DNA of 64,000 nucleotides from an uncultured Candidatus Saccharibacteria bacterium (GCA_964402035.1 CAYOAM010000001.1:24261-88260), one strand, 5' to 3'; counted from the first letter of the stretch, positions 20,464 through 56,446 are shown. Notes: generated by a model not told the origin, from the sequence alone. Program-made: numbers and translations.

Positions 20464-20486
20464 GTTCGATTCCTATCCCTGGCACA
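20464..20486 (+). repeat. 23-nt direct repeat of the tRNA-Leu(UAA) 3' end (22/23 identical), 121 bp downstream of the intact gene
   Basis: gttcgattcctatccctggcaca versus the tRNA's gttcgattcccatccctggcaca. An att-like duplication. Confidence 0.7.
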
Positions 20487-21586: not shown

Positions 21587-21592
21587 TCACGG

Positions 21593-25021: not shown

Positions 25022-25143
25022 TGATACTATTTGCCCGTTAAAAGTCACAAGCGACACGTAAGAGATGTTGACCGTATAAAGGTGTCTTGAGGTGCGCGAC
25101 GTGCTTGGTATTGAGGTATCACTACCCTATAATTAGTTTTAGT

Positions 25144-30082: not shown

Positions 30083-31334
30083 CCATTCGGTCTATCGCAA
30101 CAATAATGATGCCAGAGGATAATTCATTAATAATTTTTGCCCATATGACGCCGGTAAGGCCAAAAGGAACTGCTAAAGAAATCATAATTAAGATGTGCGC
30201 AATGGTGGCGATCTGTGAGTAGGTTTGTAACGCCCGCATGTTACGTATGGCAACCCAATAAATCGTACATACGAGCGTTGGGTAGGCAATGATTGATAGT
30301 AAAAGAATGCGCGCAAACGGGGCAACTTGCGTAAATGTCGCAAATAACTGAGGCATTATATACTCGACAAAAAAAAGTAATGTGATACCCCCGCATATTC
30401 CCAAGATGCTAGCGACAACAAGCCATGTCTCAAAAGGACGCTGCTGCTCATCCTGCTGTATGTGCGGCAATATATAGAACTGTAACAAATTTTTGTACGC
30501 GGTTTTGAAATGCTCAATAGGGAGTGTTGCAATCACGTAGGTAGCCAAGGCGAGCGGGCCTAGCACTATGAAGACGAGTATTTTTTCAATGGCAGGCAAC
30601 AGAGCCAATGGAAACTGTATAAGCGTTAATTGTCGACCAAACAATGAGTCAGCGTACGCTTTTCGGTGTTGGTGAATGTGCGTGGTATGTGTTTTTGGCA
30701 ACTTTTGTGCTACATACATAAGTGCGAGTAGGGTGGTCGCGGCTTGGCTGCCGAGGTACAGAATAATAATTCCACTTGCGGAATTAAATAATATGCCACC
30801 AAAGGTAGCACCTACGAGCGCGCTCAAAACAATGCCAACATCGACTACAATTTTTATTTTGAATGCTTTAATGCCAGCCAGCACTAGCCCGGGTACCAGA
30901 TAGAGATTCGAGAGGGGAGTTATCAGTCCACCAATGACGCAGGCGAGCCCTAATTCATACTGACCGATACTGTAGTGATAGCATGCGACAAGTACTGACC
31001 CTAAGATTGAACCTGCACCCCACGCATATTGGGAACGAATCATAGCCCAATACCCTTTTTGCGTAATGGTTGATGCACTATGACTCAAAACTTGACTTAT
31101 GCCTGGTAGCGACCAAAACGAAAGGATTGCGAAAAGGGCAATAAGATATCGTATTTCGCCGAAGCGTTCCGGTGAGTTGAAACGGGCAAGCAGCACCACA
31201 ATACCCGCAGAGCCAATACTTAAGAGGATTTGATTTACTACGACGTAGTAGAGCGACGTGTGTTCTTGCGCAAATGAAAACACGGTGCGTAATCGACGCT
31301 GAAGCCACATCATAGGAGTGCTAGGATCAACCAT
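30063..31334 (-). CDS. polytopic membrane protein, putative oligosaccharide flippase (MOP/Wzx-like)
   Basis: 423 aa, about 12 TM helices, between two Wzy_C-like genes. The family call is weak. Confidence 0.35.
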   Translation of the reverse strand: MVDPSTPMMWLQRRLRTVFSFAQEHTSLYYVVVNQILLSIGSAGIVVLLARFNSPERFGEIRYLIALFAILSFWSLPGISQVLSHSASTITQKGYWAMIRSQYAWGAGSILGSVLVACYHYSIGQYELGLACVIGGLITPLSNLYLVPGLVLAGIKAFKIKIVVDVGIVLSALVGATFGGILFNSASGIIILYLGSQAATTLLALMYVAQKLPKTHTTHIHQHRKAYADSLFGRQLTLIQFPLALLPAIEKILVFIVLGPLALATYVIATLPIEHFKTAYKNLLQFYILPHIQQDEQQRPFETWLVVASILGICGGITLLFFVEYIMPQLFATFTQVAPFARILLLSIIAYPTLVCTIYWVAIRNMRALQTYSQIATIAHILIMISLAVPFGLTGVIWAKIINELSSGIIIVAIDRMVTDSES

Positions 31335-32488
31335 AGATGCCTAAAATGAAGGGTGTCTATAAAAAAACTTTGAGCCAAAATACCGAGCACGGTAGAAAAT
31401 AACACAATCGCGTAGACGTCATGCGTCGTCGTAATAGAGCGATAGGAACGTCTCAAAAGTAAGAACAGAAATAGCAAAAGTATGACAAGGCCGACGGCGC
31501 CGTTCTCAATCAATACTCGCAGATATGTATTGTGTGCCGAAAAACCACGATAGGAATATATTTCATAACTTCCGTTCCCAGAACCCCGTAGTATTTCAAT
31601 GAAGCTTCGTTCAACAAGAACGTCGTATGCGCGTTCTAGATTCTCAATACGCGGAGTGTCTGATGCGGTTATGCGATTTTGTAACCGCATAATCGGTTCT
31701 GTCTGGCCCAGTGCTGCAAAGCTTCCTACCGCAATCGTTGCTAGAAAGAGTCCAATATACACGAGGCGTCGAAGCACAATAATACGTGGTAGGAGTGTGT
31801 ACTTGAGTAGTATATAGGTTACTGCAGCTATGGAAATTAATGCGTTGATCCAAGCCCCGCGAGATACAGTAAGTATGAGTGCGAACACGAGCAGTATGGT
31901 TGGTAGTGCATACAGTATCCTTTTTACTCTATAGGTGGTTGTGTACATAGCAACAAGTGCACTAATAAGCGCTGGAACTAGAAATGCGCCAAAGACATTC
32001 GGATCAGAGAAGAACACTTGCAATCGACCGGTATCAGAAAAGAGTGATGGAAGTGCGAAAGTTTGCCGCACTGCATACGCAAGACATCCGATAAGTGCCG
32101 TAAGTGTAGCGCCCAAGCAATACCCACTCCACAGTGCCTCGCGGTAGGTTCGCCAATAGTTGATAAGAAAAAATAAGCCAATGAGGTAGAGAGTAGCTTG
32201 TGTGAATGCTAGTTGGCTTTCAGGCAAGAATAGTGCGCTGCATATAACAAGTATCAGAAAGGCATAAAGCGCTTGTGTGTGGCGCTCCGCCAATGTTACT
32301 TTAAAATATGGTAGCCAGTGATGCCGGGTAATAGTCGTGATGCCAAGGAGAGCAAGCGCGATATCGATTGGGCTCAGCGACGAAAATGAAAAAGCAAATA
32401 GGATGCCAAGTGATACAAAGAGGGTGCGGTTGGCGAGGGTAAGCGGCATAGTGATGACGGCAATTGTCGGGCACACTATAGCATACAT
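31310..32488 (-). CDS. O-antigen ligase/Wzy_C-like membrane protein
   Basis: Multi-TM with FSAHNTYLRVLIENGAVGLVILLLF (the Wzy_C/WaaL HN-YL...E-G motif). Confidence 0.55.
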   Translation of the reverse strand: MYAIVCPTIAVITMPLTLANRTLFVSLGILFAFSFSSLSPIDIALALLGITTITRHHWLPYFKVTLAERHTQALYAFLILVICSALFLPESQLAFTQATLYLIGLFFLINYWRTYREALWSGYCLGATLTALIGCLAYAVRQTFALPSLFSDTGRLQVFFSDPNVFGAFLVPALISALVAMYTTTYRVKRILYALPTILLVFALILTVSRGAWINALISIAAVTYILLKYTLLPRIIVLRRLVYIGLFLATIAVGSFAALGQTEPIMRLQNRITASDTPRIENLERAYDVLVERSFIEILRGSGNGSYEIYSYRGFSAHNTYLRVLIENGAVGLVILLLFLFLLLRRSYRSITTTHDVYAIVLFSTVLGILAQSFFIDTLHFRHLWLILALL

Positions 32489-32943
32489 GACGCATGTATT
32501 CGCCTTTTACATATTGTGTCATCGATTGCGTATCTGCTGTAACAAATAGACTGATTTTGCGGCTAGTTCTCGTAGGGTCGAAGAGTATTATTTCTCGCTA
32601 AACACAAAATGTTTATGGACACTAATGCAAATAAGGCGAACGTAAGCCAAGCAGAAAAAATGCGTCTTAAAACTGACGCCGAAACGAAGAAGTATGAGTC
32701 AGGAATGTCGACTGATGCTGCCGCGGCAGCTCATAAAAATGCAGAAGAAAAGAAATGATATTTGCTCGCATAGTATTTTTTTAACATAATAAAAACATAT
32801 GAAAGATACACTCCTCAAGGCGCGTAAAAATTATGACGAAGATGAAGATTTTTCTGATCCTGAAATGAAGCTTGTATAGCGGTGCGCCTTGAGCGTTTCC
32901 CACAACAAAAAAATCCCTCACATGAGGGATTTTTTTGAAATAT

Positions 32944-33171
32944 TTATTGTGGATCTGGATCAGGTCCTGGATCACATGAGCCAATAGTATCTCCGTGATT
33001 TTGTACGTGTGCATCCACTGCTGGTGCACCAACGGTGATCTCGTGCCCTTTGTGGCAGATAGTGACTTTCTCTTGCCCTGCGTTAGCAAATGCAATCGTA
33101 CTCAAAAAAAGTCCGAGCACTATCGTAGCAATTGCCAAATAGGTTGTAGTGTTAGTGCGTGTGTTTGTCAT
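32944..33171 (-). CDS. small exported protein (75 aa) with a His/Cys-rich tail
   Basis: Signal/TM segment, then VTICHKGHEITVGAPAVDAHVQNHGDTIGSCDPGPDPDP. Confidence 0.3.
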   Translation of the reverse strand: MTNTRTNTTTYLAIATIVLGLFLSTIAFANAGQEKVTICHKGHEITVGAPAVDAHVQNHGDTIGSCDPGPDPDPQ

Positions 33172-33225
33172 GGTGTAATTATTATGAATAACTACTAAAT
33201 TATACCGCGCATGTTACAGCAGATT

Positions 33226-33471
33226 TCAATTCATACGTTCATAACCGAGAGGTTCTCGTAGCCATTCAGCAACACCGCTGTGTCTGTGGCACACAAAGCG
33301 TCTAATCTCTGCACTACTGTACGTACCGTCAACACATAGGGCCGTGGGATTTTCTGGTGTTGGAAATTCACTTTGTGCCAAGGTCACTATTTCTGTAGCA
33401 AGGAGGCTTCCCGAGACAAAAACGAGCATAAAAATCCACATGAGAAGTTTGTGAGATTGTATGATATGCAT
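33226..33471 (-). CDS. small exported Cys-containing protein (81 aa)
   Basis: Signal peptide, then ALCVDGTYSSAEIRRFVCHRHSGV. Confidence 0.3.
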   Translation of the reverse strand: MHIIQSHKLLMWIFMLVFVSGSLLATEIVTLAQSEFPTPENPTALCVDGTYSSAEIRRFVCHRHSGVAEWLREPLGYERMN

Positions 33472-33592
33472 ACTTCTTACAACATATGCGGTTTAATTTA
33501 GGTTTCCATTTGAGAATTGGCTAACAATCTAATATAGAAATAAAAAAATGCCTTATGATTTCAGTCATGAGGCAGTTTGGTGTTTATGCATT

Positions 33593-34174
33593 TCATCGGA
33601 ACGTCATATAGTGGGCAGCGAAACTAACTTCTCCCGCGCTAAGGTAGCCATATCTCTCCCGACGCCCAGCATTTGCTGTCAGATAAAAGTCGCGGAAGCC
33701 AAGCATCATCGCAGTCAGATCTACCGCTTCTTCGTGTTCTCGAAGTGGATGATTGACAGCATTTAGTACGACATGGCTGAATTCGTGAGCGATAGCGCAC
33801 ACAATTTCTTCAAAACCTCCAGTGTCCAAGAAGTTTTTTCGGAGAAACAACGTGACCGAGGTCCTGCGGAAATCTGATGTCCCAAAGGCGGGCATTGGAC
33901 TCGGGAGTAGGATCCAAGCTGGCGCATTTGGGCCACCACTACTCACAATTCCTAAGGTAACCTTCATATCGAGATTCATCATTTCTCGAATAGTACGAAC
34001 CATGTCCACATAGTTCCTTTGTTTGTACTGTGCTATTAGTACTTCCTCAGGAATACTCATACGCAGTGTGCCTAATGAAGTGCGTAGTTGTTGGATATGT
34101 GACGCAACAAGGTCGGTGCGCATTCGTATCTCCCAAAAAATGATGGCCTTGCCCGTATGTTGAAGAACACTCAA
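33593..34174 (-). CDS. putative zinc metallopeptidase (HEXXH)
   Basis: AIAHEFSHVVLNAVNHPLREHEE contains HEFSH plus a downstream His/Glu. Confidence 0.4.
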   Translation of the reverse strand: MSVLQHTGKAIIFWEIRMRTDLVASHIQQLRTSLGTLRMSIPEEVLIAQYKQRNYVDMVRTIREMMNLDMKVTLGIVSSGGPNAPAWILLPSPMPAFGTSDFRRTSVTLFLRKNFLDTGGFEEIVCAIAHEFSHVVLNAVNHPLREHEEAVDLTAMMLGFRDFYLTANAGRRERYGYLSAGEVSFAAHYMTFR

Positions 34175-34290
34175 TAGCGCTATTTACGCACATAGATTAC
34201 TGAGCGTTATATAGCGATGGCAAACGAATGTCAACTATCATGAAGTGCGATGGGGTTAGTCAGAGAATTTTTCTAGGTATCATTGATCGA

Positions 34291-36186
34291 CTACTTTAGA
34301 CCAAAATACCGTGGGAATAGGGGAATGCTTCCGCCTTTAGTTTTTCCTTCGACAATGGGGAGTTGCAATACCGTGGATGGCCATGGAATTGGAAGTGTGC
34401 CGGTAAATGGTTTTTTGCCAAATAAGACATCGGCGACACCAGCGCCTTCACTTCCTGGAAGCCATGCAACGACAACTGCGTTCCAGTCTTGAATCTGATC
34501 AGTAATCATGAGGGGTCGTCCAGTGACTAACACAACGACAACGGCGTCGCTTACTTCCTGCAGTCGATAAATATTAGCAAGATCTTCCTCACTGAGAGAT
34601 GGATTTTGATTATCACCCCAACCTTCTGCGTAGGGTGCTTCACCCACAATAGCAATTCCAATGTCTGCTTTTAGAGAGTTGAGAGGGAAGTTTGCTTGGG
34701 CATCAAACTCTATCGTCGTTCCTTGTGGGGCAGACTCGCGTACACCCTGCAGGATCGAAGTTGCGCCCGGTAGCCAATTTCCGTCGATTCCTTGCCACTC
34801 GACAGTCCAGGCACCTGCTTGTTTCCCAATATTGTCGGCAGCACTTCCTGCGACGCGGATCAGAGATGTGTTTCTCTTAATAGGCAGTAGAGTGCTCTTA
34901 TTTTTGAGAAGTACCAGAGACTTGGCTACCGCATCGCGCGCAAGTGTGCGGTGCGCAGGTGATCCAATCTGGTCAATATTTTTTTTATCTAACGTATCAA
35001 AAAGGCCCAGTTTAAACTTTGCGGTTAGGATTCGCTCCACCGCATCGTCTATTCGTGATTCTGCGATATCACCATTCTTCACGGCTCGCCGAATATTTCT
35101 GACAAACTCTTGATAATCAAACGGTAGCATGACCATATCAACACCTGCATTGATGGCAGTGACTGCCGCAGTGTAATTTCCTCCAGGGATTTCATATACG
35201 CCATACCAATCCGACACCACAAAACCTTTGAATCCAAGTTCGTCTTTCAGTACTGATTGTACGAGATAGGAAGATGCTGCAAGTTTTGTCTCACCCCAGC
35301 TATTGAGTCCGACCATGACACTGGCTGCGCCTGTTTCGATCGCTTTTTTAAATGGAGGAAGGTAGTACGTACGGAGTTTCTCCTCATCTATCAAGGTCAT
35401 CCCTTGGTCAATTTTAAAATTCTCGTTACTCGCACTGCCCCAGAGCATCCCCCCGGCGCCGATGTAATGCTTTGGTGTTGCAAGGACTGAAATCGTTGAT
35501 GATGCCTCAGAGGGATTTTCTTGTAACCCACGTATGTATGCACTCCCAAGTTTACTTACGAGCGTAGGGTCATCTGAGAATGTTTCATACACTCGTCCCC
35601 ACCTGATGTCCTCGGGCATGTCGTACGTGGGGGAGTAGCTCCACCGCACATTGGTGGCGAGTAGTTCATCCGCAGTTGCCCGAGCAACATTTTCGACGAG
35701 TGTTTCATTGCCGCTTGCTCCGAGTCCAATGAAATGTGGAAAGACCGTGGCGCCAGGGATATTGCTGTGGCCATGGATCGCGTCAACGCCATACAAGATA
35801 GGGATGCCTAGGCGTGATGCACGCGATTCTGAGACATAGGTGTCGACCATATTTTTCCAACCCAAGGCTGTATTGTCTTCTGGTTTTCCTCCAAATCCGC
35901 TGAGCATTCCACCAAGGCCATACGTTTGAATATCCTCAAGGTCTCGCAAACTATTTTTTTCTACCAATGCCATTTGTCCGATTTTTTCTTCGAGTGTCAT
36001 GTGTGACATGAGATCAGTGACTCTCGCTTCAACAGAAGCTTTGCCGTCTCGATAGAGAGGATTTTCAGAAAGTTCGGGTATATCGGTAAAGAAAAAGTCA
36101 ATCAGATAATAACTAGCGACTACGCATAGAAGTATACAAACAAGAATTGTAGCCCTCGGTTGCTTCTTAAGAAAACGAAGAGTCAT
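34291..36186 (-). CDS. glycoside hydrolase family 3 (beta-hexosaminidase/beta-glucosidase-like), membrane-anchored
   Basis: GIPILYGVDAIHGH, KGFVVSDW (catalytic Asp region), and the GH3 C-terminal domain. The ORF track extends to 36273, overlapping the upstream gene; the internal Met (MTLRFLKKQ...) followed by a TM segment is the likely start. Confidence 0.75.
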   Translation of the reverse strand: MTLRFLKKQPRATILVCILLCVVASYYLIDFFFTDIPELSENPLYRDGKASVEARVTDLMSHMTLEEKIGQMALVEKNSLRDLEDIQTYGLGGMLSGFGGKPEDNTALGWKNMVDTYVSESRASRLGIPILYGVDAIHGHSNIPGATVFPHFIGLGASGNETLVENVARATADELLATNVRWSYSPTYDMPEDIRWGRVYETFSDDPTLVSKLGSAYIRGLQENPSEASSTISVLATPKHYIGAGGMLWGSASNENFKIDQGMTLIDEEKLRTYYLPPFKKAIETGAASVMVGLNSWGETKLAASSYLVQSVLKDELGFKGFVVSDWYGVYEIPGGNYTAAVTAINAGVDMVMLPFDYQEFVRNIRRAVKNGDIAESRIDDAVERILTAKFKLGLFDTLDKKNIDQIGSPAHRTLARDAVAKSLVLLKNKSTLLPIKRNTSLIRVAGSAADNIGKQAGAWTVEWQGIDGNWLPGATSILQGVRESAPQGTTIEFDAQANFPLNSLKADIGIAIVGEAPYAEGWGDNQNPSLSEEDLANIYRLQEVSDAVVVVLVTGRPLMITDQIQDWNAVVVAWLPGSEGAGVADVLFGKKPFTGTLPIPWPSTVLQLPIVEGKTKGGSIPLFPRYFGLK

Positions 36187-36217
36187 TTGTTTTAGTATAC
36201 AGGATAGAGAACTTGCT

Positions 36218-36754
36218 CTAAGAGACAGAGGTAAGCAGCTTCGTATATGTTCCTTCGATATCGCCAAGTACACTTGCGATAGTTGTAATATTCAGCCGCT
36301 CACTCATTGCTTTTGTCATCCTCTCAAATAAGTTCTCGATTTCAGGCAGATCATCTTTAGAAAGTTTCGGAGAACCATCTTCACCCCAGACACCTCGCTT
36401 TAGTAGTCTATCAATTGCTTCATCTTTCTCAGTTTCAATATAGATTTCATAAAATGAAACATCAAGCCTTTTTGCAATTTCTTCAAATGCTTGAGCGTGG
36501 GTGGAGTCGGTGAGCAAGTAGGGGAGTACCACATCATACCCAGCTTCAAGTTGATTTTCTGTTATTGATTTGGTGTGTTCGAAAACCAATTTTCTTGCTT
36601 CATCCTCATGTTTGCGCCACTGACCCATCATGCCGATGATCTGGTCTCCTTCAATCGCTATTGCAAGTGGATGCTCGTCAACATATCGTTTTGCAAGCGT
36701 CGTCTTGCCGCTTGCAGCGAAACCATACAGTAGAATCAGTTTAGGTTGTCTCAT
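36218..36754 (-). CDS. P-loop kinase (AAA_33/zeta-toxin-like fold)
   Basis: LLYGFAASGKTTLAKRY Walker A at the N-terminus. 178 aa. Confidence 0.5.
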   Translation of the reverse strand: MRQPKLILLYGFAASGKTTLAKRYVDEHPLAIAIEGDQIIGMMGQWRKHEDEARKLVFEHTKSITENQLEAGYDVVLPYLLTDSTHAQAFEEIAKRLDVSFYEIYIETEKDEAIDRLLKRGVWGEDGSPKLSKDDLPEIENLFERMTKAMSERLNITTIASVLGDIEGTYTKLLTSVS

Positions 36755-36757
36755 AAT

Positions 36758-37282
36758 TTACATCTGATTCTTTGCTTCTGGTGTCGGTGGTGTAAAGGTG
36801 TAGTCAGTTTGTTTGATTGCTTCTTGGGGAATCGTTTTGAGCTCTTTTACGGTAACAAAATCTTGGTTGATGGAACCGTCCCCATTCTTTAACATTAGCT
36901 GTACGACACGGTGCATGCCATTGATAAGCCAATCTCCCTGCACGTGAATCGGCTGTCTATAATCTGCTTCTTGAATCCTTTTGATATGCTCTTGGTATTC
37001 AGGATGAATTTCGCTAACTTTTTCATAACCCAGTTCTTGGATAAGTGCAATAAGTGAACGTGGTGTAAATGGTTGCTTGTTTCTGTCAGTCCAGCAGTCG
37101 CGGTCGAGACGATATTCAAAATCAGCAAGCGGTCGCTTAGTCACCGGGTGGCCTTCGGTTAAGTGTATGAGTCTGTTTACGTCGACTAACACTCCGTTAT
37201 TTGACGACGTCTCGCTATTGTCTACCTCATTGCGCAAAGGACGAGCGGGGATGCTTTCCCAAGGAATTCTTCGGCCACTCAT
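36758..37282 (-). CDS. hypothetical protein (174 aa from the internal Met)
   Basis: The ORF is open to 37450, but the upstream part has low coding character. MSGRRIPWESI... at 37282 is the likely start. It is directly coupled to the kinase gene (4-nt gap). Confidence 0.35.
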   Translation of the reverse strand: MSGRRIPWESIPARPLRNEVDNSETSSNNGVLVDVNRLIHLTEGHPVTKRPLADFEYRLDRDCWTDRNKQPFTPRSLIALIQELGYEKVSEIHPEYQEHIKRIQEADYRQPIHVQGDWLINGMHRVVQLMLKNGDGSINQDFVTVKELKTIPQEAIKQTDYTFTPPTPEAKNQM

Positions 37283-37800
37283 GGTGACTGTAGTATAGCA
37301 TTGCCTATATGGGGCTTCAAAAATAGTTTTTAACCTCGCTTTGTGTGATGAATAAAAAAAGCTCCAGTGGGAAGACGTGAGTGTCTTTCGCCACTGGAGC
37401 TTGTATGGAGGGTGGGTGATTCTACAGAGCCGTGACCGAGGCGGCACCATGATTCATGAATTGCGATACACCTAGGCCATTACCACTAAAAACGATGAAC
37501 GGCACGAAGGGCGACAGGTTCGTCGACGTGTCGGGAGGCACAAGAGTGGCATTACCGATCATTGTAATGTTCACCGAACCTCTCAACGCTTCGAATGCCT
37601 TGTCCCTCTTGGCGTCATTGGTGAACAAAGCCAACATCGCTGTATCCGTCATGTGAATCTCCTTGCTTCAACATCAAGTGTTGACGACAGAGATTCTGCT
37701 CTTTTTTAATAGAAAGTCAAGCTGTCCGTTTAAATTTTCTGGCAGTTGCACTGTTCGAGGATAAAAAATGGTTTTCAAATTTTAACGAACCGTCGCACGT

Positions 37801-37954
37801 GTGGTCACGAATCACTTAGTAGAATTTTCGAACTCATGTTCAAAAATTCTACTAAGTGTTCTCGACCCCGGCTCGAAGGTTTTTGCTTTGAAGAGCAAAA
37901 ATATTTCTGTGCCTCGCACAAAAGCAAAAAACCTGCCGCAGGGCAGGTTCCGTG
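37801..37954. repeat. tRNA-flank hairpin module (family-A element, then ttttgc hairpin, then gcacaaaag...cttttgtgc hairpin)
   Basis: Same three-part architecture as downstream of tRNA-Leu(UAG) and tRNA-Cys. Here it is attached only to a tRNA-Tyr fragment. Confidence 0.7.
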
Positions 37955-37971
37955 TCTTTTGTGCGCCGGGT
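37952..37971 (-). repeat. displaced 20-nt copy of the tRNA-Tyr 3' end (putative att-site half)
   Basis: gcgccgggtaggatttgaa is identical to 43970-43989 (the 3' end of intact tRNA-Tyr), in direct orientation, 6.0 kb away. Confidence 0.75.
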
Positions 37972-38175
37972 AGGATTTGAAGTTTACTACTTCAGTACAC
38001 CTCTGAATAGCACCCCATGCTATTCAGCTACTTTTCTGCGCAAAGCTTGAAAAGGTAGCTCGCAAGGTTTTCAAATCCATGCTCCCAACACAAAAGACGT
38101 CCACAAGGGACGCCTTTTCTATTGGGTGCTCCGAACTGGAGGCGATTCGGATTCTATGCCTATAGTCTTCTAAAC

Positions 38176-38204
38176 TTGACACGAATTATAAAACATGATA
38201 TAAT
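38176..38204 (+). promoter_or_regulatory. sigma70-like promoter TTGACA-N17-TATAAT
   Basis: ttgaca at 38176-38181, a 17-nt spacer, tataat at 38199-38204. ggaga SD and ATG (38253) follow. Confidence 0.55.
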
Positions 38205-38252
38205 ATAAGAAGGTAAAGTTCTTCAATTCAAACCCCAAAACGGAGACGTCAA

Positions 38253-38477
38253 ATGGCAAATACAAACCTCAATGATCTCGGCGTATTTCTGAATACTGAT
38301 ATCGGCTTATGGCTAGTCGTCGCAGCAACTTCGTTAGTCATGGACCGATTTTTTTCCTCCATTTCCAAAAAAAATGACGAAGAGGAAATGGAAAGGGTTC
38401 GAGATATGCGCAAGTACGGACTAACAGTTGTCGGCGGATTCGGGGCAGCCGTGCTGATTAAGCAACTGTTCATGTAA
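38253..38477 (+). CDS. small two-TM membrane protein (74 aa)
   Basis: Consensus promoter and SD upstream. Two hydrophobic helices. Confidence 0.45.
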   Translation: MANTNLNDLGVFLNTDIGLWLVVAATSLVMDRFFSSISKKNDEEEMERVRDMRKYGLTVVGGFGAAVLIKQLFM

Positions 38478-38704
38478 TTGGTAGGGCTCTATACGTAGAG
38501 CTCTAGACTTCCATGGACGAAGGCGGTGCAGCAATGCATCGCCTTTTCTTTTGCAAAAAAATTAAAGCTATCTCACAACATAAAAGGCGTCTCATGTGAT
38601 GCTTTTTATGTTGGGCGCACCGAACTGGAGGCGGTTCGGACTTTTTGTGTTGCAAATACCTTGTCTTAGAGTTGAATAGTTAAAGTGGTATAATGGCCTG
38701 TTGT

Positions 38705-39541
38705 ATGGAAAGCATTCATTTTCTAAACGGTAAATTTGTTTCGGAGAAGGAGCTTCTCATTTCTCCGCGTGATCTTGGGTATTCTCGGGGATATGCAGTG
38801 TTTGACTTTCTAAGAACGTACCAGCAGAGACCTTTTCTGCTTCAGAAGCATATAGACCGACTATTCCGCTCAGCTGAGACTCTAGCACTCACAATCCCAT
38901 GGTCTAAAGAACAGGTTTGTGAATGGGTTTCTGAAACGCTCGAAGCGAACAAAAGCATCAATACTGAAAACGTAGCGCGAATAATTATCTCTGGCGGCTC
39001 GTCAACCACACTTGTTCCACCGCGCCTTCCGACTATAGTAATTACAGTTGATGCCGTAATTGGTTGCCCCCCGGAAGAATACAAACACGGAGTCGAGATA
39101 CGTTTAGTCGAATTTCAGCGATATCGTCCGGAAGCAAAGACAAATAACTATATCGAAGCAGTTATGACACTTAAAGCACTCGCCACACAAAACATTCATG
39201 AGGTCATATATTATTCAGATGGCATGGTACGGGAAGGTACCCGATCAAATATTTTTGCTCTCATAAATGGAAGACTTCTTACTCCTAAGACTCTGGTCTT
39301 GGGAGGGATAACTCGCGAAGCATTGCTTGATATTCTAAAGCTGTCAGTACCATTAGAGGTTGAAGATTTCTCAGTTGCCGCCCTGCGTTCAGCATCTGAA
39401 GTATTTATTACGGCGACTGGCAAAGAAGTGATGCCAGTTACTAAGATAGATGGCGTTATCGTTGGAGACGGCAAAGTCGGTTCTTTAACTAATGAGGTAA
39501 TGAGACAACATCAATCCTTTATCGACTCAGGTCTTTGGTGA
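38705..39541 (+). CDS. class IV PLP aminotransferase (branched-chain / D-amino-acid aminotransferase family)
   Basis: FLNGKFV...GYAVFDFLRTY...RLFRSAETLAL...IISGGSS fits the fold-type IV pattern. An extended -10 (tggtataat) lies at 38682-38690. The start is 38693 or 38705. Confidence 0.6.
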   Translation: MESIHFLNGKFVSEKELLISPRDLGYSRGYAVFDFLRTYQQRPFLLQKHIDRLFRSAETLALTIPWSKEQVCEWVSETLEANKSINTENVARIIISGGSSTTLVPPRLPTIVITVDAVIGCPPEEYKHGVEIRLVEFQRYRPEAKTNNYIEAVMTLKALATQNIHEVIYYSDGMVREGTRSNIFALINGRLLTPKTLVLGGITREALLDILKLSVPLEVEDFSVAALRSASEVFITATGKEVMPVTKIDGVIVGDGKVGSLTNEVMRQHQSFIDSGLW

Positions 39542-39544
39542 TAT

Positions 39545-40384
39545 TTAACTCCAAAGAGACAGGGTGTCATCCTTGAGAGTCATGAAAGAATTAAAAGTGA
39601 GTCGGATTTGGCTAGAACGAATCGAGTCTATTTGGTGAAAGTTTCGAGTTCGAAAGATAATCAAGTCACCAGAAGCGGGGAAGACTCTGGTTGGTTTCTC
39701 GTTTTCAAGGAAGGTCGGATCAAATCCATTAGGACCTTTTTCAAGGATGTCTTTATTATAGACTTCGTCTTCAGAAACCCATGGATGATTATAAATATTA
39801 AGTTCCCCCCCGGCATTTGGCATTTGGAGGTATAACACTAAACCGAATTGTTCCTCAGACTCTGCTACTTTCCATCCAGGGAGCTGGACGGGGGCATAAT
39901 CAAAGTGCAGGGTACTCTTGGCACCCATAGCACGAATAAGTCCAGTAAAGTACTGAGCTTGATTCATGCTCGGTTCCTGCGCTATTGTTATTTTGTAATC
40001 TGCGGAAAACGTACCAATTATTTTTTGGATTGGATCTGGCACTCCGTGAAATATCTTCTCTAGAGTAGCGGTAGCCTCGGCGACACGTGAGAAATATAGT
40101 GCTTTGCCGTTCTCTTTGGAGTGATATTCTGTTGCGCTTATTCCAATGCGGCCCTGTTTATTTTCTGAATTTACATACCAAGCGATGCTTTGTCTATCGA
40201 TGTTCTTATCGATGACAGCGAGTTCAACTGGATGATAAAAATTCGTCACCTTAACGGCAGCAATCTGGTTTGAGGACAATAGTGGTAGCATTTTACGTGG
40301 CTCAAAGTTCTCCCCGTATGCAGTCGTCTTAATCTCCCAGTCGTTATTGTATTGCATTGTTGTGTATCCTATCACGGAATGCAT
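39545..40384 (-). CDS. putative 2-oxoglutarate/Fe(II)-dependent oxygenase
   Basis: Candidate H-x-D...H facial triad (LHFDY ... NIYNHPW) and downstream R..S (FHQIDSIRSS). Weak; based on the motif only. Confidence 0.35.
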   Translation of the reverse strand: MHSVIGYTTMQYNNDWEIKTTAYGENFEPRKMLPLLSSNQIAAVKVTNFYHPVELAVIDKNIDRQSIAWYVNSENKQGRIGISATEYHSKENGKALYFSRVAEATATLEKIFHGVPDPIQKIIGTFSADYKITIAQEPSMNQAQYFTGLIRAMGAKSTLHFDYAPVQLPGWKVAESEEQFGLVLYLQMPNAGGELNIYNHPWVSEDEVYNKDILEKGPNGFDPTFLENEKPTRVFPASGDLIIFRTRNFHQIDSIRSSQIRLTFNSFMTLKDDTLSLWS

Positions 40385-40413
40385 TTAGCTTGCCGCATGG
40401 TACTATCTTCGTC

Positions 40414-41868
40414 ATGGATCGGGTGAATATCTTGGTTATAGGAGTGGGTCCTCATGCCCAGAGGATTTATGTCCCGAAACTTGCAGGACTTGCCAGTAAG
40501 GGTGTACCTGTGCACCTGGCAGGTGTTGTTGACCTAAAGAGGCAACAGGGAGAGATCGACCAATACTTAAAGGAGAAAGGATATTCCCCAAAAACACTGT
40601 ATCTGGATTCATTTGATGAGACGACAGGAATGCCTTCGAGTATTCTAGCCATACTCAATGCTTTTGTTAAAGATTTGAATATACAAGGTGTTGTTATTTC
40701 AACGGTACCAACCGTCCATAAAGTTTATGGGCAGTGGGCTTTGTCACACGGCTTACACATTCTCATGGATAAGCCAATTTCTATGAGGAAAGGCATCAGC
40801 ACTGATGTATCTCAGGCTGCTGCTTTGATAAAAGACTATGAAGATTTGTTAGTGTTATACCAAGAGAAACAGAGTACTCACAATACAGCCTTCTCAATTA
40901 ATGTACAGCGCAGATACGAATACGGGTTTGATCTTGTAAAACAACTAATTGCAGAAACAAAGGAACGGTTTAATATGCCCGTTACTTCTATTCAGGCAAT
41001 GCACGCGGATGGTACGTGGATGTTTCCCAAAGAAGTACTGACTCAAGAATCCCACTGCCTTTTCGATGGCTACGGGAAAGTTGCCCATAGCGGATATCAC
41101 ATATTTGATATGGTATGGCAACTATACAATGCAGGGCTTGTTGAAGAAAAGAAACCTGATTCGCTGGAAATCTTGTCTTCACCACTAACACCAGCTGGTC
41201 TCAACATTGATTTGTGTGAAGACGATTATCGACATTATTTTGGGTCGGAGTATGACGCAACCACCTTTTCTGAGGCAGAATTCCAAGAAAAGGTTAAGAA
41301 CTATGGTGAATCGGATTCGTTTAATATTATCAGGCACTTAAAAAACGGCGAGAATATTTGTAATGTTTCCATTAATTTACTCCACAGAAGCTTCTCTGGA
41401 CGCTCATGGGCAGTGCCAAACACAGACAGGTATAAGGGAAATGGCCGGATCAAACATCAACATTTTATAATCCAGCAGGGGCCATTTCAGTGCATTCAGA
41501 TTCACAACTATCAATCCAAAGATTCTCACGATATCGATAACTCCCAAGAGTTTGATATCGGAGGAAACAACCATTTTGATATATATGTTTTCCGCAACAA
41601 AGGAATGTTTGGATCAGGTGAGTCTTTTTTTAAGATCTCTGCCAAGGATCTTGAAGACAAAAAACGAGAGAGCGGTCTAATCGTTGAGAATGCAAAAGAA
41701 CGAGTCATTATTGAGTTTATAGATTTTATGCTAGGTAGGATTAATAAAAGTGAGTTAAAATCAAATATTGATACACACAGCATACCCGTTAAGATGATGA
41801 GTGGAGTGTGTCAATCGGGCGCGCGTCTTCGGAAGGGAGATAATCCTCTAATACACATTTCCATATGA
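40414..41868 (+). CDS. NAD(P)-binding oxidoreductase (Gfo/Idh/MocA-like N-terminus) with a long C-terminal extension
   Basis: ILVIGVGPHAQRIYVPKLAG Rossmann GxGxxA motif at the N-terminus. 484 aa. The ORF is open from 40357 and overlaps the convergent gene; the ATG at 40414 is the likely start. Confidence 0.4.
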   Translation: MDRVNILVIGVGPHAQRIYVPKLAGLASKGVPVHLAGVVDLKRQQGEIDQYLKEKGYSPKTLYLDSFDETTGMPSSILAILNAFVKDLNIQGVVISTVPTVHKVYGQWALSHGLHILMDKPISMRKGISTDVSQAAALIKDYEDLLVLYQEKQSTHNTAFSINVQRRYEYGFDLVKQLIAETKERFNMPVTSIQAMHADGTWMFPKEVLTQESHCLFDGYGKVAHSGYHIFDMVWQLYNAGLVEEKKPDSLEILSSPLTPAGLNIDLCEDDYRHYFGSEYDATTFSEAEFQEKVKNYGESDSFNIIRHLKNGENICNVSINLLHRSFSGRSWAVPNTDRYKGNGRIKHQHFIIQQGPFQCIQIHNYQSKDSHDIDNSQEFDIGGNNHFDIYVFRNKGMFGSGESFFKISAKDLEDKKRESGLIVENAKERVIIEFIDFMLGRINKSELKSNIDTHSIPVKMMSGVCQSGARLRKGDNPLIHISI

Positions 41869-42491
41869 TAGGCTCAATTTATTTAATCGGAGGTGGTGAA
41901 ATCAGAAAGGGTGAAACTGTAGAAATTGACAATGAGTTAAAAGAAATTTGTCCCGCAAATTCAACCTTTGTTTTTTTTGGTACAGCGGCAGGGGATAGTC
42001 CAGAGTATATTCATACAATTGAGTCAATCTTTAAAAGCAATTTTAAAATCATCGCACCAACAGAAAAGGATGGTCCTGAATTTGCACTGTCTGCTATAAA
42101 ATCCGCATCAATCATTTATCTTGGTGGTGGCACGACCAAATTACTGTTAGATCTTTTTGAAAAGTGGGAGCTTGTCCAACCACTTCGTGAAGCATTAAAT
42201 CGAGATGTTCATCTTGTAGGAATGAGTGCGGGTGCACTAGCTCTTTCTACTTGGTATCTTCACGAAGAAGGAGATTCTATGGAATTACGACGCGGATGGG
42301 GTTTTGCTTCAGTCTGTACACTTGTACACGCGCAAAAAGACTCTTCTGCTCGGGCACAAATAATCTGGAAAGGTAATAAAGATGCGCATGCAACCCCTCT
42401 TATTGCAATTGGTGAAGGTGCCGCATGGCGTATAAGCTCTCACGATACTCAGAAAGTTGGAAGTGGTGAAATAAAGTATATCCAGCACTAG
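41865..42491 (+). CDS. peptidase S51 family (dipeptidase E / cyanophycinase-like)
   Basis: IYLIGGGE, IYLGGGTTKLLLDLFEKWEL and HLVGMSAGALA (the nucleophile Ser in GxSAG) match the S51 pattern. Confidence 0.55.
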   Translation: MIGSIYLIGGGEIRKGETVEIDNELKEICPANSTFVFFGTAAGDSPEYIHTIESIFKSNFKIIAPTEKDGPEFALSAIKSASIIYLGGGTTKLLLDLFEKWELVQPLREALNRDVHLVGMSAGALALSTWYLHEEGDSMELRRGWGFASVCTLVHAQKDSSARAQIIWKGNKDAHATPLIAIGEGAAWRISSHDTQKVGSGEIKYIQH

Positions 42492-42636
42492 TTTATTGAA
42501 AGCAAAGGCAACTTCAGTGAAGTATGTACTGTGGTAGTCATCCTGGCCTGACAATATCGACAGGAGACAGTATTTGTGGTATTAAAATCAAGTGTTTTGT
42601 TTTTTGTCATCGTAATTAAACTTATGGAGGTATCGC

Positions 42637-43758
42637 GTGATCACTACTCTGAAAGAGAAGTTCCTCGTTTATCATCGAGTTCGGGGATTTGGTATCTATG
42701 AATCCTTTCCATTGGTGATCAGTGATCCTACGATTCTGTTTACCAATGCCACCATAACCCCTTTCAAACCCATGTTCATGGGAGTGGAGAAGAGGGTAAA
42801 CTATGCCCTCGTGCAGAAATGTTTGCGTTTGGGTGGTGCGAGTGGGAATCTTGATACTCCACGAACAAACCCAAACTTCACTTCCTTGTTCGAAATGCTT
42901 GGAAGTGGATTGTTTGATGTCAGTCAAGATGTTGCCGTTGCTTATTTCGTTGAAGTGTTAGCTTCACTGGGTCTTCGGAGAGAAAATCTTTTGTTTACCA
43001 CCCTTGCCAACCTTGGCTTTGAACTAGCCTTGGAGCGAGCAGGGATTCGTTTGCAGCAAATCAGGGTCTTCGCTGATGCAAAGGATATCGTGCATGAATG
43101 GAGTTTTGGAGAAGGTGACCTGCATGGGTGTGGAGTAGTAGCTTGGCATGTCCCAGAAGGCTACCAGAAATCCACGTCCGACAGTGTCTTACAGGAACTT
43201 TCCCACTTCGTTCAAATCGGAAGGATAGTTCACATCGTTGGTGTTGCACGCGGGGCATCGGTGGAGACGTTCCCGTACGCTGCATACGACTTGGGGCTCG
43301 GATTGAGTCGGGTCGAACTGGCTCTCAGTGGGAATTGTGAGGTCTTCCTGCGTCCGTGGAGGGTGTTCGCAGCCCATTTTCAGGCAGTCATTGCCGGGTT
43401 GGGTAAGACGGATGCACACTACCTCGCCAATCTCTACCGGATAGTCGTTGAGCTTGTTGGTGAAGGGCTCTTGCCCGGAACAAAGAAGCAAGCCTATGCT
43501 CTCAGAAAGGTGATTCGATTGCTTATCGAGGAGATTTGGATGAAGTCAGGTACGCTCGTGGATATACCCACCGTGCTGACTGCTTCTGTCAGTACATCTC
43601 CTTCCCCAGATCTTCTCATAAGCATTTTTTCTCAAGAGGAGAAGGCTTTACGAGCAGTACTTTCTGTTGCTGCAAAAAAGCAGAGAGAGCATCCTGACAT
43701 GAGTCTAGAGGAGCTGCGTTCGACGTTCGGAATTCGTCCAAGCCTGCTCAGGCTCTAA
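42637..43758 (+). CDS. alanyl-tRNA synthetase catalytic-core homolog (373 aa; class II AlaRS aminoacylation domain only)
   Basis: DPTILFTNATITPFKPMF, QKCLRLGGASGNLD and SLFEMLGSGLFD align with the E. coli AlaRS segments DPTLLFTNAGMNQFKDVF, QRCVRAGGKHNDLE and TFFEMLGNFSFGDY. GLGLSRVELAL aligns with motif 3 (GMGLERIAAVL). The editing and C-terminal domains are absent. Confidence 0.65.
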   Translation: MITTLKEKFLVYHRVRGFGIYESFPLVISDPTILFTNATITPFKPMFMGVEKRVNYALVQKCLRLGGASGNLDTPRTNPNFTSLFEMLGSGLFDVSQDVAVAYFVEVLASLGLRRENLLFTTLANLGFELALERAGIRLQQIRVFADAKDIVHEWSFGEGDLHGCGVVAWHVPEGYQKSTSDSVLQELSHFVQIGRIVHIVGVARGASVETFPYAAYDLGLGLSRVELALSGNCEVFLRPWRVFAAHFQAVIAGLGKTDAHYLANLYRIVVELVGEGLLPGTKKQAYALRKVIRLLIEEIWMKSGTLVDIPTVLTASVSTSPSPDLLISIFSQEEKALRAVLSVAAKKQREHPDMSLEELRSTFGIRPSLLRL

Positions 43759-43924
43759 AGGATTGGTGTAAACCTAGACTCACTTTGAGTAAATGGCCCG
43801 GGATCACGAAAGTGTTTTTTGGGCCATATTTTTTTATATAGTGGATTTCAGGTGCCAAATTTAGATGATCTAATAAACAATAAATAAAAAATTAGACCTG
43901 AACCAAGATGTCTAACTCAATTGC

Positions 43925-43969
43925 GCCTCTACGAAAATAACCCCATCAACTGGGGTTATTTTCAAAAAG
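43925..43969 (-). terminator. hairpin following tRNA-Tyr (gaaaataacccc-atcaact-ggggttattttc)
   Basis: It differs from the cacaaaag-type hairpin that follows other tRNAs. It lies inside the putative island end. Confidence 0.5.
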
Positions 43970-44053
43970 TGCGCCGGGTAGGATTTGAACCTACGAAGCC
44001 CTGAGGGCGACAGATTTACAGTCTGTTGCGATTGACCACTCCGCCACCGACGC
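43970..44053 (-). tRNA. tRNA-Tyr (anticodon GUA), type II with a long variable arm
   Basis: Manual cloverleaf. Acceptor GCGTCGG/CCGGCGC (one G-U pair), anticodon stem ACAGA/TCTGT with loop CTGTAAA, variable arm hairpin GCCC-TCA-GGGC, T-arm GTAGGTTCAAATCCTAC. Confidence 0.75.
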
Positions 44054-44261
44054 ATGTTGTTCAGGATAACTCTTCCGATCTCGTATGTCATCTATTCGCT
44101 TTCGCTCATAACGATGGCATAGTCTTTGAAATTAAGACAAGCAGTTGTCTTAATTTCTGCCACCGACGCGCGATCTATACCGTATCACAGGTTTTTGAGT
44201 GTGGGAAGTGTGGTAAACGTCCATGCGGTCTTCGTGAGGGTGGTATCATTGAAGGAATGCC

Positions 44262-46622: not shown

Positions 46623-46753
46623 AGCGAACGAAGTGAGCGAGGACGATGAGGGAATCGAACCGACAGTGCGGGGCACTGTCGTGCCGAGGGACGAGGTCGA
46701 TTCAAAAATATCATCACCCGTGTCAGGTGTCAGCATGTTAAAATGTATTCATT

Positions 46754-49976: not shown

Positions 49977-50017
49977 TACCACCTGCCTGCCGGCAGGCAG
50001 GTTCCACCACTCCAGCA
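49977..50017. repeat. 22-bp perfect palindrome acctgcctgccggcaggcaggt joined to a copy of the tRNA-Leu(CAA) 5' end (ttccaccactccagca); copy 1
   Basis: Read from the sequence. The second copy is at 50280-50320. Confidence 0.8.
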
Positions 50018-50021
50018 ATAT

Positions 50022-50261
50022 TTATTTTCCAATACTTTTCAAGAATTCTCTACCTGCACCTGACTTGAGATATTTTTCTCTTGTCCGAGCAGCTGTCCTC
50101 GTATCATATACTTCGCTGTAAATCAGAGCAACAGGCAGGTACCGCTTTGTGGTTTTACTGTATCCACTCGTATGCTCGTACAGTCTTCGCGACAAATCAC
50201 TGGTCATTCCGGTATAGTGGAATTTTTTCAGTTTATTTTCTAGAACATAGACCGTGTACAT
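50022..50261 (-). CDS. GIY-YIG nuclease family protein (79 aa from the internal Met)
   Basis: YTVYVLENKLKKFHYTGMTSDLSRRLYEHTSG matches the GIY-YIG core (Y-x-Y ... Y-x-G ... R-x-x-x-H). The ORF-track N-terminus (MLEWWNLPAGRQVV) is encoded by the flanking palindrome repeat and is rejected. Confidence 0.7.
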   Translation of the reverse strand: MYTVYVLENKLKKFHYTGMTSDLSRRLYEHTSGYSKTTKRYLPVALIYSEVYDTRTAARTREKYLKSGAGREFLKSIGK

Positions 50262-50279
50262 AGGTGCACATGTGTATAC

Positions 50280-50320
50280 CACCTGCCTGCCGGCAGGCAG
50301 GTTCCACCACTCCAGCATTT
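50280..50320. repeat. second copy of the 22-bp palindrome plus tRNA-Leu(CAA) 5' fragment (preceded by gtgtatacca, which also matches the tRNA D-region)
   Basis: ataccacctgcctgccggcaggcaggttccaccactccagca. A direct repeat of 49977-50017 flanking the GIY-YIG gene. Confidence 0.8.
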
Positions 50321-50469
50321 AATATTTTCTTCAATCAAATTTGCTCCAACTATCAGCGTTGTAGATGGTAAACCTACAATTGACTTATTTCAGCACAAAA
50401 GCTCTGTCCGTAGAGTGTATCAACAATTCACTCTATTCTCAATATTCTCTGTGATACAATGACCCCGAT

Positions 50470-55543: not shown

Positions 55544-56446
55544 TCATAAGCGGTCAGTGATGCGCATAATCACGCCATGTTCTTCGCGAATATAACCACC
55601 AAGTTCAAGAAGGGTGATAGTCTGTTGTGTGTCTACTATTGGAAGAGCAAGTATGCGAATTAATGCATCTTTTTGTAGCGGTGTTTCGAGTGCCGCAAGG
55701 ATTTTGTGCTCGACGGTATCGCGTGCGAAAGTATGATGTGTCGTCTCGGTAGCGTGTGGCTTAATATGTAGTACTTCTAATATATCCGTAGCGTTTGTAA
55801 TAGGTGTTGCACCATCGCGCAGCAACATATGGGGACCATAACTCCCACGAGAAAAAATTGAACCAGGGATAACGAGCACATCTCGATTGTAGTCGAGTGC
55901 GAGACGTGCGGTGATGAGTGTTCCTGATTTTTCACCCGCTTCCACAATCAGTGTTGCGTGTGACATACCTGCCATGATCCTATTTCTGCGAGGAAATGCC
56001 CACGTGGTCGCTGTAAAGAGCGGTTCGTACTCTGAAAGGATACCTCCACCAGATTCCAGTATTTTTTTTGCGAGTCTACGATGTGTCGGTGGATAGAGCA
56101 CGTCATCATGTACGCCAGAACCGGGAACTGCGAGTGAATGTAGATTGGCGTCGAGCGCTGCTTCGTGTGCGATCCCGTCAATGCCGAGTGCAAGTCCCGA
56201 TACAATAGTAATGGGGTAACTTGCGAGCCCCTTGATGAGCATCTTTGTGGCTTCCTTACCGTAGGCGGAACAGTGGCGTGAACCCACCACCGCAAGTAAG
56301 CTGTTTTCTGTCGGTGGTAGTGTGCCGCGCAGGTACAAGGTTTTTGGACCGTCAGGAATCTCAGCAAGAAGGTGCGGGAAATCAGCGGGTTCGAGCGTGA
56401 TTATTGGAAAGCGAATATCCTCCATACTATATAAAAAGTGTAGCAT
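55544..56446 (-). CDS. dprA: DNA processing protein DprA (Smf)
   Basis: Rossmann-like DprA core: IVSGLALGIDGIAHEAAL ... AGEKSGTLITARLALDYNRDVLVIPG. Confidence 0.85.
   Translation of the reverse strand: MLHFLYSMEDIRFPIITLEPADFPHLLAEIPDGPKTLYLRGTLPPTENSLLAVVGSRHCSAYGKEATKMLIKGLASYPITIVSGLALGIDGIAHEAALDANLHSLAVPGSGVHDDVLYPPTHRRLAKKILESGGGILSEYEPLFTATTWAFPRRNRIMAGMSHATLIVEAGEKSGTLITARLALDYNRDVLVIPGSIFSRGSYGPHMLLRDGATPITNATDILEVLHIKPHATETTHHTFARDTVEHKILAALETPLQKDALIRILALPIVDTQQTITLLELGGYIREEHGVIMRITDRL

Follow-up and report, generated by a model that had tools for sequence, protein, structure and literature searches.

We analysed 64,000 nt of DNA from a Candidatus Saccharibacteria genome (GCA_964402035.1 CAYOAM010000001.1:24261-88260; hereafter the window, whose numbering is used for all positions). 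Downstream of its tRNA-Tyr gene, between the hairpin belonging to the tRNA gene itself and a short structured element that we call the type-1 module, lies a gene block of ~5.8 kb (about 38.1-43.9 kb), which carries five enzyme genes, one of them encoding a truncated paralog of alanyl-tRNA synthetase (AlaRS). An earlier examination of the nucleotide sequence by itself (the sequence-only reading) had taken the block for an island integrated at the 3′ end of tRNA-Tyr. We lean towards a different account, in which the block is a lineage-variable insertion in the tRNA-Tyr trailer and not a self-contained island of the integrase type, and in which the 21-nt repeat that brackets it is not an integration scar. 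The region is best read as a tRNA-trailer hotspot in which a cluster shuffled by recombination has lodged. The window was compared with other contig loci (L004-L104), and the related sequences all derive from metagenome-assembled genomes (MAGs) of Patescibacteria (the Candidate Phyla Radiation, CPR). If the account is true, gene traffic in these bacteria can concentrate in tRNA trailers without integrases, which bears on gene gain and loss in reduced genomes.

A repeated tRNA-Tyr end and an empty site

The intact tRNA-Tyr(GTA) gene occupies 43969-44053 on the minus strand. Its last 21 nt (GTGCGCCGGGTAGGATTTGAA; 43969-43989), spanning the T-loop, the 3′ strands of the T-stem and the acceptor stem, the discriminator base and one C, form an exact direct repeat with 37961-37981, also on the minus strand. 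A search at up to 3 mismatches found no third copy, and the number expected by chance was 0 (100 shuffles). The repeat had been reported before as one of 20 nt: it is real and its right-hand coordinates were correct, but the left copy lies about 9-10 nt further to the right. The two copies have different surroundings, as had also been reported. The intact gene is directly followed by hairpin T2 (43934-43962, minus strand). The displaced copy is joined to a three-part hairpin module with a terminator (37798-37960, minus strand; terminator-like hairpin at 37928-37951), which also follows tRNA-Leu(UAG) and tRNA-Cys and, in addition to what had been claimed, tRNA-Lys (families D2, D3 and D5).

The closest relatives found, L027 and L028, have ClpB proteins 88.5% and 86.9% identical to that of the window and IF-2 proteins 78% identical; ClpB identity is 42-69% in the 19 GTDB-representative loci that carry ClpB (59-69% in 18 of them). 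The tRNA-Tyr genes of L027, L028 and a third locus, L029, share the anticodon and D arms of the window's gene, which the tRNA-Tyr of L034 does not, and their flanking pilin-like proteins are 54-58% identical to the one here. The five enzyme genes, sought at tRNA-Tyr in these three loci, are absent from all of them.

The sequence-only reading had proposed looking in related genomes for tRNA-Tyr directly followed by the module, and L027 shows this. Its intact tRNA-Tyr adjoins the orthologue of the trailer that flanks the displaced copy in the window, with 106/121 positions identical across the junction, and it has neither the cassette nor the displaced copy nor the small module that contains it. 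The module at 37798-37960 aligns with the trailer of the intact tRNA-Tyr in L028 as well (98/123), and we take it for the ancestral tRNA-Tyr trailer. Since tRNA-Tyr directly abuts the module in L027, the tRNA-Tyr trailer is a true site of insertion or deletion.

L028 and L029 also do without the cassette, yet each carries a displaced end of its own tRNA-Tyr ~155 nt downstream of the gene, in a 110-160-nt module with an inverted copy of the T-arm. The order in both is displaced copy, mini-module, terminator and intact tRNA, with no genes between. The footprint of integration proposed earlier thus stands in one part, as the block is absent from relatives and the site is empty in L027, and falls in another, as the displaced copy is already present where there is no cassette. 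Likewise, the sequence-only reading had set its island against the prospect of the same block at tRNA-Tyr throughout related genomes with no empty sites, and what we found lies halfway: occupied and empty tRNA-Tyr sites both exist.

The junctions predicted are ...CCGTGTCTTTTGTGCGCCGGGTAGGATTTGAACCTACGAAGCC... for the empty site and ...GGGGTTATTTTCAAAAAGTGCGCCGGGTAGGATTTGAAGTTTACTACTTCAGTACACC... for a circular form of the block. A 61-nt stretch of the window's tRNA-Tyr, searched in JGI metagenomes for empty or occupied sites of the same species, gave 0 matches. The exact flanking protein was found on a 453-kb contig from an ENA sample (20x coverage) and on a contig from a Logan run, and the arrangement is identical in both. 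An assembly artefact, such as a chimeric join at the repeated tRNA end, is therefore hardly credible: repeats of this kind do break short-read assemblies, and the contigs of L102, L103 and L034 end at or near them, but the same arrangement, with the same gene order on both sides, was assembled independently in the ENA sample and the Logan run.

tRNA-end modules

The displaced copy belongs, as outer arm, to a structured module of ~125 nt (37961-38085), which consists of an inverted copy of the tRNA end, a conserved core and the direct copy. Read on the minus strand, the body of this type-1 module (37982-38085) has the core GGTGTACTG followed by a small hairpin, and its inverted arm, TTCAAATCC, lies at 38070-38078. 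A terminator-like hairpin, T1 (38092-38119, plus strand), closes the module at the position held in L028 and L029 by the hairpin between module and tRNA. The module is homologous to the mini-modules at tRNA-Tyr of L028 and L029 and aligns with modules of L029, L034 and L018 and with that of the window's own tRNA-Leu(UAA); its single-sequence fold on the plus strand has z = -3.0.

Such modules are common downstream of tRNA genes. Our survey took in 62 tRNA genes from the window and the loci compared with it, 58 of which had enough downstream sequence, and drew on a genome-contig scan of 23 Patescibacteria tRNA-Tyr loci, used only for this survey and for the ClpB synteny described below; none of the 23 is close to the window (MiaA at most 47% identical). 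Copies of the tRNA's own 3′ end, direct and/or inverted, follow 27 of the 58 genes. In tRNA sense, a full unit runs from the tRNA end X through a terminator, the inverted copy X′ and a conserved core to the direct copy X. The direct copies lie at +124 to +412 nt from the tRNA, often as two or three tandem units and normally with no genes inside. The window's tRNA-Tyr, with its direct copy at +5990, is the sole outlier of the survey. The arms match the local tRNA in every case, including three T-stem variants of tRNA-Tyr as well as Leu, Trp, Cys, Thr, Met and Gln.

The bodies belong to two conserved types common to different tRNAs and genomes, type 2 being the three-part hairpin of the sequence-only reading. 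Type-1 copies fold as a closing stem with two hairpins, with compensatory changes in 14/22 pairs of the alignment fold, and one short stretch of their core (TAC-G and the GTA loop) is invariant. Single-sequence folds of most module copies have z = -3 to -9. Rfam covariance models run against the modules returned only tRNAs at gathering score and nothing credible at E up to 5.

Because copies of a tRNA's own end are generic, and because L028 and L029 carry the repeat without the cassette, the 21-nt repeat is best explained as an arm of a generic tRNA-linked element, which removes its value as a footprint specific to the insertion. The sequence-only reading had also allowed for a widespread repeat unrelated to tRNA-Tyr. 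The repeat does belong to a widespread class, but its ends are copied from tRNA-Tyr. More generally, tRNA trailers in these genomes appear to be repeat-rich, variable zones.

Being short, structured, multi-copy, intergenic and often tandem, with inverted terminal arms, the modules resemble repetitive extragenic palindromes, the mosaic elements built of them (REP/BIME) and repeats like miniature inverted-repeat transposable elements. They differ in that the terminal arms are copied from the preceding tRNA gene while the core is shared, and in having no Rfam match. We consider it distinctly unlikely, if worth stating, that the modules are an undescribed platform of Patescibacteria specific to tRNA 3′ ends, which would propagate at tRNA genes and capture or move cassettes without an element-encoded integrase (for example, by a trans-acting or RNA-guided recombinase), with the five-gene cluster as one cargo. 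If the modules are what we take them to be, they will mislead island finders based on tRNA repeats in these genomes, and they merit a study of their own.

Further modules with copies of the local tRNA end lie in the window at 20344-20486, 18353-19400, 21445-21590 and 46623-46700, and others in L028, L032, L018 and L011. Upstream of tRNA-Tyr, at 44130-44171, a hairpin is followed by a copy of the first ~12 nt of the tRNA (CTGCCACCGACGC, plus strand), so that tRNA 5′ ends are evidently duplicated too; L028 and L029 share both the upstream hairpin and the copy of the tRNA-Tyr 5′ end.

Comparison with integrase-made elements

Tyrosine integrases build islands and prophages at att sites in the T-loop and 3′ end of tRNA genes. 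The block resembles their products in several respects: a direct repeat of the tRNA 3′ end starting from the T-loop, an intact tRNA at one end and a displaced end at the other, cargo between the repeats with slightly lower GC, and an empty site in a relative. It differs in that the same type of repeat also occurs at sites without cargo (L028 and L029), in that the displaced copy sits in a structured module with an inverted copy of the same tRNA end, and in that the cargo is a chromosomal gene cluster conserved in the phylum. It also differs in having no integrase or excisionase in the block or beside other copies of the cargo. Indeed, in agreement with the sequence-only reading, we found no recombinase domain in the block, and the other window genes examined had none either. 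None was seen beside about 12 other copies of the cluster, and no integrase was found downstream of tRNA-Tyr at ten other loci, where the nearest open reading frame (ORF) was scanned. Neither PADLOC nor PHROGs detected any defence or phage signal in the block.

Elements without recombination genes exist, however. The cis-mobilizable elements (CIMEs) of streptococci are flanked by att sites and encode no recombinase of their own. The block is likewise bracketed by att-like repeats and encodes no recombinase, and tandem accretion is conceivable; it differs from CIMEs in that no integrase-bearing element using this site was found in the collections searched, and there is no evidence of excision. 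In a reading of this kind, which we regard as unlikely though a serious contender, the type-1 module would be the arm next to attP, a recombinase acting in trans would target the T-loop and 3′ end, the cassette would be cargo and bare modules would be miniature derivatives. The exact repeat indeed begins in the T-loop, the classic sublocation for integrases that target tRNA genes, and the insertion relative to L027 is precisely bounded by the repeat. Direct repeats of modules also flank the cluster in L034, L032 and L035, the cluster recurs beside tRNA 3′ ends, and the invariant core stretch could be a putative protein-binding site. Apart from the missing recombinase, this reading has to contend with the absence of any match to the 21-mer in viral contigs (0 matches), where the attP of a phage or element was sought, with the fact that tRNA, module and cluster do not always follow one another in the same order, and with an inverted arm to which nothing in known attP sites corresponds. 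As integrating circles, moreover, units of ~150 nt would be implausibly small.

A gene cluster conserved across Patescibacteria

The sequence-only reading had presented the contents of the block as the cassette of an island. This cargo is not an exotic one. The five genes, encoding a class IV aminotransferase (AT4), an oxygenase of the WelO5 family (WelO5), an oxidoreductase of the Gfo/Idh/MocA fold (GFO), a peptidase of family S51 (S51) and the AlaRS paralog, form a conserved Patescibacteria cluster found at many loci. They occur together in at least 12 other contigs (L030, L032, L034, L035, L036, L038, L039, L045, L049, L102/L103 and L104), and L048 and L099 carry incomplete or degraded clusters. 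The labelled assemblies include a Nomurabacteria MAG and a Saccharimonadales MAG. The GFO and S51 genes are adjacent in every copy and the AT4 and WelO5 genes always form a convergent pair, while the order of these blocks is permuted in L035, L038 and L099. L032 and L034 both come from GCA_021733405.1, in which two diverged clusters, about 57-71% identical to that of the window, lie on different contigs; either one genome has two copies or the bin is mixed.

The surroundings of the cluster vary. It adjoins tRNA-Asn in L036, L045 and L049 and tRNA-Gln with a module in L038, and no tRNA lies beside it in L030, L032, L035, L039 or L104. The order is tRNA, cluster, module in the window and tRNA, module, cluster in L038 and L049; since this order differs between loci, module and cluster act as entities independent of each other. 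A pair of module-like direct repeats encloses the cluster in L032 and L035. The flanking repeats measure 63 nt at 92% identity in L034, 34 nt (exact) in L032 and 102 nt at 72% in L035.

In L034 the cluster stands at the same tRNA-Tyr locus with the same right-hand synteny, in the order cluster, T2-like hairpin, mini-module, tRNA-Tyr, pilins, tRNA-Trp, MiaA, tRNA-Leu, ParB, RelA and TopA, with a further module on the left of the cluster. This arrangement raises the possibility that no mobility was involved, the cluster having stood beside tRNA-Tyr since the common ancestor with L034 and having been deleted between tRNA-end copies in the lineage of L027, L028 and L029. A hairpin similar, by eye, to T2 follows the cluster in L034, the 3′ flank of the AlaRS-like gene just upstream of T2 aligns at 69/81 positions, and a D8 motif (see below) is found on the left. 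Furthermore, the cluster proteins of the window and L034 are 60-68% identical, similar to RelA, TopA and ParB (61-71%), the GC content of the cluster tracks each host, and a deletion between X copies would give exactly the arrangement of L028 and L029. Against a purely vertical history, copies at unrelated loci (L030 and L032) are as similar to the window's as the L034 copy or more so, the gene order is permuted in three loci, and L027 lacks even the mini-module.

The similarity to the nearest copy, L102, is mosaic. Its AT4, WelO5 and GFO proteins are 80-85% identical to those of the window, whereas identity falls to 67% for S51 and 57% for the AlaRS-like protein. The 80% DNA match stops at 42433, which fits a jump in GC to 49.9% in the AlaRS-like gene, and such a break in identity indicates recombination between lineages. 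The L102 contig starts, on its AT4 side, with a sequence like the 3′ end of tRNA-Tyr. The pattern of 85% against 57% identity requires inter-lineage recombination, which also counts against descent without movement, a reading that we regard as rather improbable.

Composition agrees with the sequence-only reading in that the block is AT-richer: GC is somewhat lower, at 43.0% within 38121-43924 compared with 46.7% elsewhere in the window, and four of the five cluster genes lie 1.4-2.5 standard deviations below the window's gene mean. The exception is the AlaRS-like gene, which lies above that mean, with neighbours at 41-44%. The tetranucleotide deviation of the block is the maximum of the window, but only at z = 2.7. 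In L030, L034 and L036, too, the cluster has a higher AT content than its flanks; in L032 and L035 it does not.

How the cluster may have reached the trailer

We favour the reading of a shuffled cluster in a trailer hotspot, in which the five genes would have been placed here, or lost from relatives, by recombination in the host following the uptake of DNA, with conserved stretches of tRNA and module as homology anchors. An element-encoded integrase would then be unnecessary. A DprA gene, present at 55544-56446, is in keeping with this reading.

Several points weigh against this reading. The relatives compared are other species, so that gain and loss are inseparable, and the recombinase check covered only the 64 kb of the window, on a contig of 453 kb. 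Compared with L027, module body and cassette together (6,008 nt) look like one insertion bounded by the tRNA 3′ end, as an integrase would make. The repeated presence of the cluster just after tRNAs (Tyr in three lineages, Asn and Gln) suggests targeting over chance. Finally, the recombination mechanism is one that we infer, as is the pathway chemistry proposed below.

The five enzymes and a possible pathway

The content of the block described by the sequence-only reading, five enzymes and a 74-aa ORF, was borne out, and Pfam confirms all five enzyme annotations, although every one of the proteins scores below the NCBIfam equivalog cut-offs. The first gene (38693-39541, plus strand) encodes a fold-type IV aminotransferase dependent on pyridoxal phosphate (PLP; Aminotran_4, PF01063, E = 9e-43), whose nearest relatives in the PDB are branched-chain (BCAT) and D-amino-acid aminotransferases. 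The second (39545-40384, minus strand) encodes a WelO5-family 2-oxoglutarate (2OG)/Fe(II) oxygenase (PF22814, E = 8e-21) with an HxD motif (LHFDYAP), whose H-F-D aligns to H-V-G of PDB 8acv, with D in place of G. Because halogenases have HxG or HxA, we rejected a halogenase on account of the HxD motif, which predicts a hydroxylase of the same fold family.

The third gene (40414-41868, plus strand; its stop overlaps the start of the S51 gene) encodes a 484-aa oxidoreductase with a weak match to PF01408. No PDB sequence relative was detectable for this protein. Its AlphaFold2 model (pLDDT 88.8, pTM 0.91) and Foldseek matches show the family fold, an N-terminal Rossmann domain and a C-terminal alpha/beta domain, with glucuronide-3-dehydrogenase, scyllo-inositol dehydrogenase, GFOR and DgpA as top matches (E = 1e-14 to 3e-16, target-normalised TM 0.63-0.79) at sequence identities of only 10-14%. 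The protein has 689 homologs. The fourth gene (41865-42491, plus strand) encodes an S51 serine peptidase of the cyanophycinase/PepE-like kind (PF03575, E = 5e-20, 72.6 bits against a cut-off of 23.9). The motif of the nucleophilic serine is kept, with GMSAG aligning to GCSAG of 6nqc, and the protein scores below the PepE and cyanophycinase equivalog cut-offs.

The last gene (42637-43758, plus strand, GTG start) encodes the 373-aa AlaRS paralog (tRNA-synt_2c, PF01411, 79.7 bits), which consists of the aminoacylation core and a portion of the tRNA-recognition domain. It can be aligned to residues 7-317 in an E. coli AlaRS fragment and to ~380-402 in human fragments (chain numbering). With the alaS model TIGR00344 it scores 69.3 bits, where the cut-off is 457, and the match covers profile positions 2-305 of 847. 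On the grounds of this low score and the clustering with other enzymes, we rejected a housekeeping or split AlaRS. More than 100 homologs of 367-375 aa align over their full length; where a source is named, which is the case for a few, it is a Patescibacteria MAG. The paralog keeps the equivalents of E. coli R69, W170, V214, D235 and G237 and the motif-3 Arg, while N212 is replaced by Arg (consensus IGRIVH). R64, W155, D218, G220, G222 and R225 are invariant in the family. In L099 (3334-3504) and L100 (78-248) the gene is a remnant of ~57 codons and the other four genes are kept; the AlaRS paralog may be dispensable in some lineages.

A literature search for the five-gene cluster, or for tRNA-linked repeats in CPR bacteria, found nothing specific except a review that describes AcmF. 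In ascamycin biosynthesis, the truncated AlaRS-like protein AcmF takes Ala from Ala-tRNA and attaches it to an amine, and the hydrolase AcmE cleaves it off again (PMC12945691). AcmF is reported to lack most residues for the activation of ATP and alanine (N219Q, D232E) (PMC12945691). The window's paralog, too, has only the aminoacylation and tRNA-recognition parts and is encoded alongside a hydrolase, and an active-site Asn is replaced in both proteins (by Arg here, by Gln in AcmF). In contrast to AcmF, however, it retains most adenylation residues, as judged against the description of AcmF and not its sequence. The hydrolase here is an S51 peptidase, not an alpha/beta-hydrolase, and the host is a Patescibacterium, not a Streptomyces.

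The neighbouring genes invite a second comparison. Pairs of a Gfo/Idh/MocA dehydrogenase and an aminotransferase make amino sugars, as NtdC/NtdA do for kanosamine, and as do WbpB/WbpE. In the cluster, a dehydrogenase of this fold likewise stands beside a PLP aminotransferase, and its structural neighbours are dehydrogenases of sugar or cyclitol C-OH groups. The aminotransferase, however, is of fold-type IV, not the DegT/fold-I sugar type, and the dehydrogenase, at 484 aa, has no detectable sequence relative in the PDB.

It is plausible that the five enzymes together produce or modify a small aminoacylated amine, working on a small alcohol or amine as substrate. The Gfo/Idh/MocA enzyme would oxidise a secondary alcohol, the fold-IV transaminase would aminate the resulting ketone, and the HxD 2OG oxygenase would carry out a hydroxylation. 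The truncated AlaRS paralog could then add a small amino acid, which it would activate as an adenylate or, like AcmF, take from Ala-tRNA, and the S51 peptidase might take it off again. If so, a widespread uncharacterised cluster with an AlaRS paralog that keeps its adenylation residues offers biochemists a concrete target in a phylum for which hardly any secondary metabolism has been assigned; AcmF, the only studied analogue, aminoacylates an antibiotic precursor.

The outer variable zone and other features

The variability around tRNA-Tyr extends beyond the block. In 21 of 26 Patescibacteria loci (L004-L029), ClpB and tRNA-Tyr are no more than 8 kb apart, a frequency that points to an ancestral linkage and makes it an anchor for cross-phylum comparison of the hotspot. 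The two genes (ClpB at 25087-27834 in the window) are separated by 0.9 kb in L028 and by 4.6 kb in L027, but by 16.1 kb here. The gap in the window includes ~10 kb of surface-glycan-type genes (27899-37450), namely two Wzy_C O-antigen-ligase-like genes, a flippase-like gene, a GH3 gene, an AAA_33 kinase gene and hypotheticals (by Pfam), which are absent from L027 and L028. The variable zone thus measures 16 kb, not 6 kb.

At the left end of the block, a predicted membrane protein of 74 aa (38253-38477, plus strand) has its own promoter (38176-38204, 12/12 match) and terminator (38519-38546). It matches no family, was not seen with the cluster at other loci and lies outside the conserved cluster. 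Two copies of a ~30-nt motif, D8, bracket this ORF. Copy a (GGGTGCTCCGAACTGGAGGCGATTCGGATTC) lies at 38124-38154 and copy b, 78% identical to it, at 38614-38647 as part of a hairpin-containing element (38593-38647), all on the plus strand. D8 follows the terminator to the left of the cluster both in the window and in L034 (445-476), where the D8-like motif after module A is identical at 25/34 and 26/31 positions. We weighed a reading of D8 as a degenerate third copy of the tRNA-Tyr end, but the likeness is weak (about 16/21 positions, with gaps and an 8-nt insert), and the motif is conserved in L034.

Elsewhere in the window, a gene for a GIY-YIG nuclease of 98 aa (about 50030-50270, minus strand) lies inside 53-nt direct repeats that are 92% identical (49977-50329), each of which contains the 5′ end of tRNA-Leu(CAA) and a CCTGCCTGCCGGCAGGCAGG palindrome. 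In L032 a GIY-YIG gene lies 1.3 kb from the cluster.

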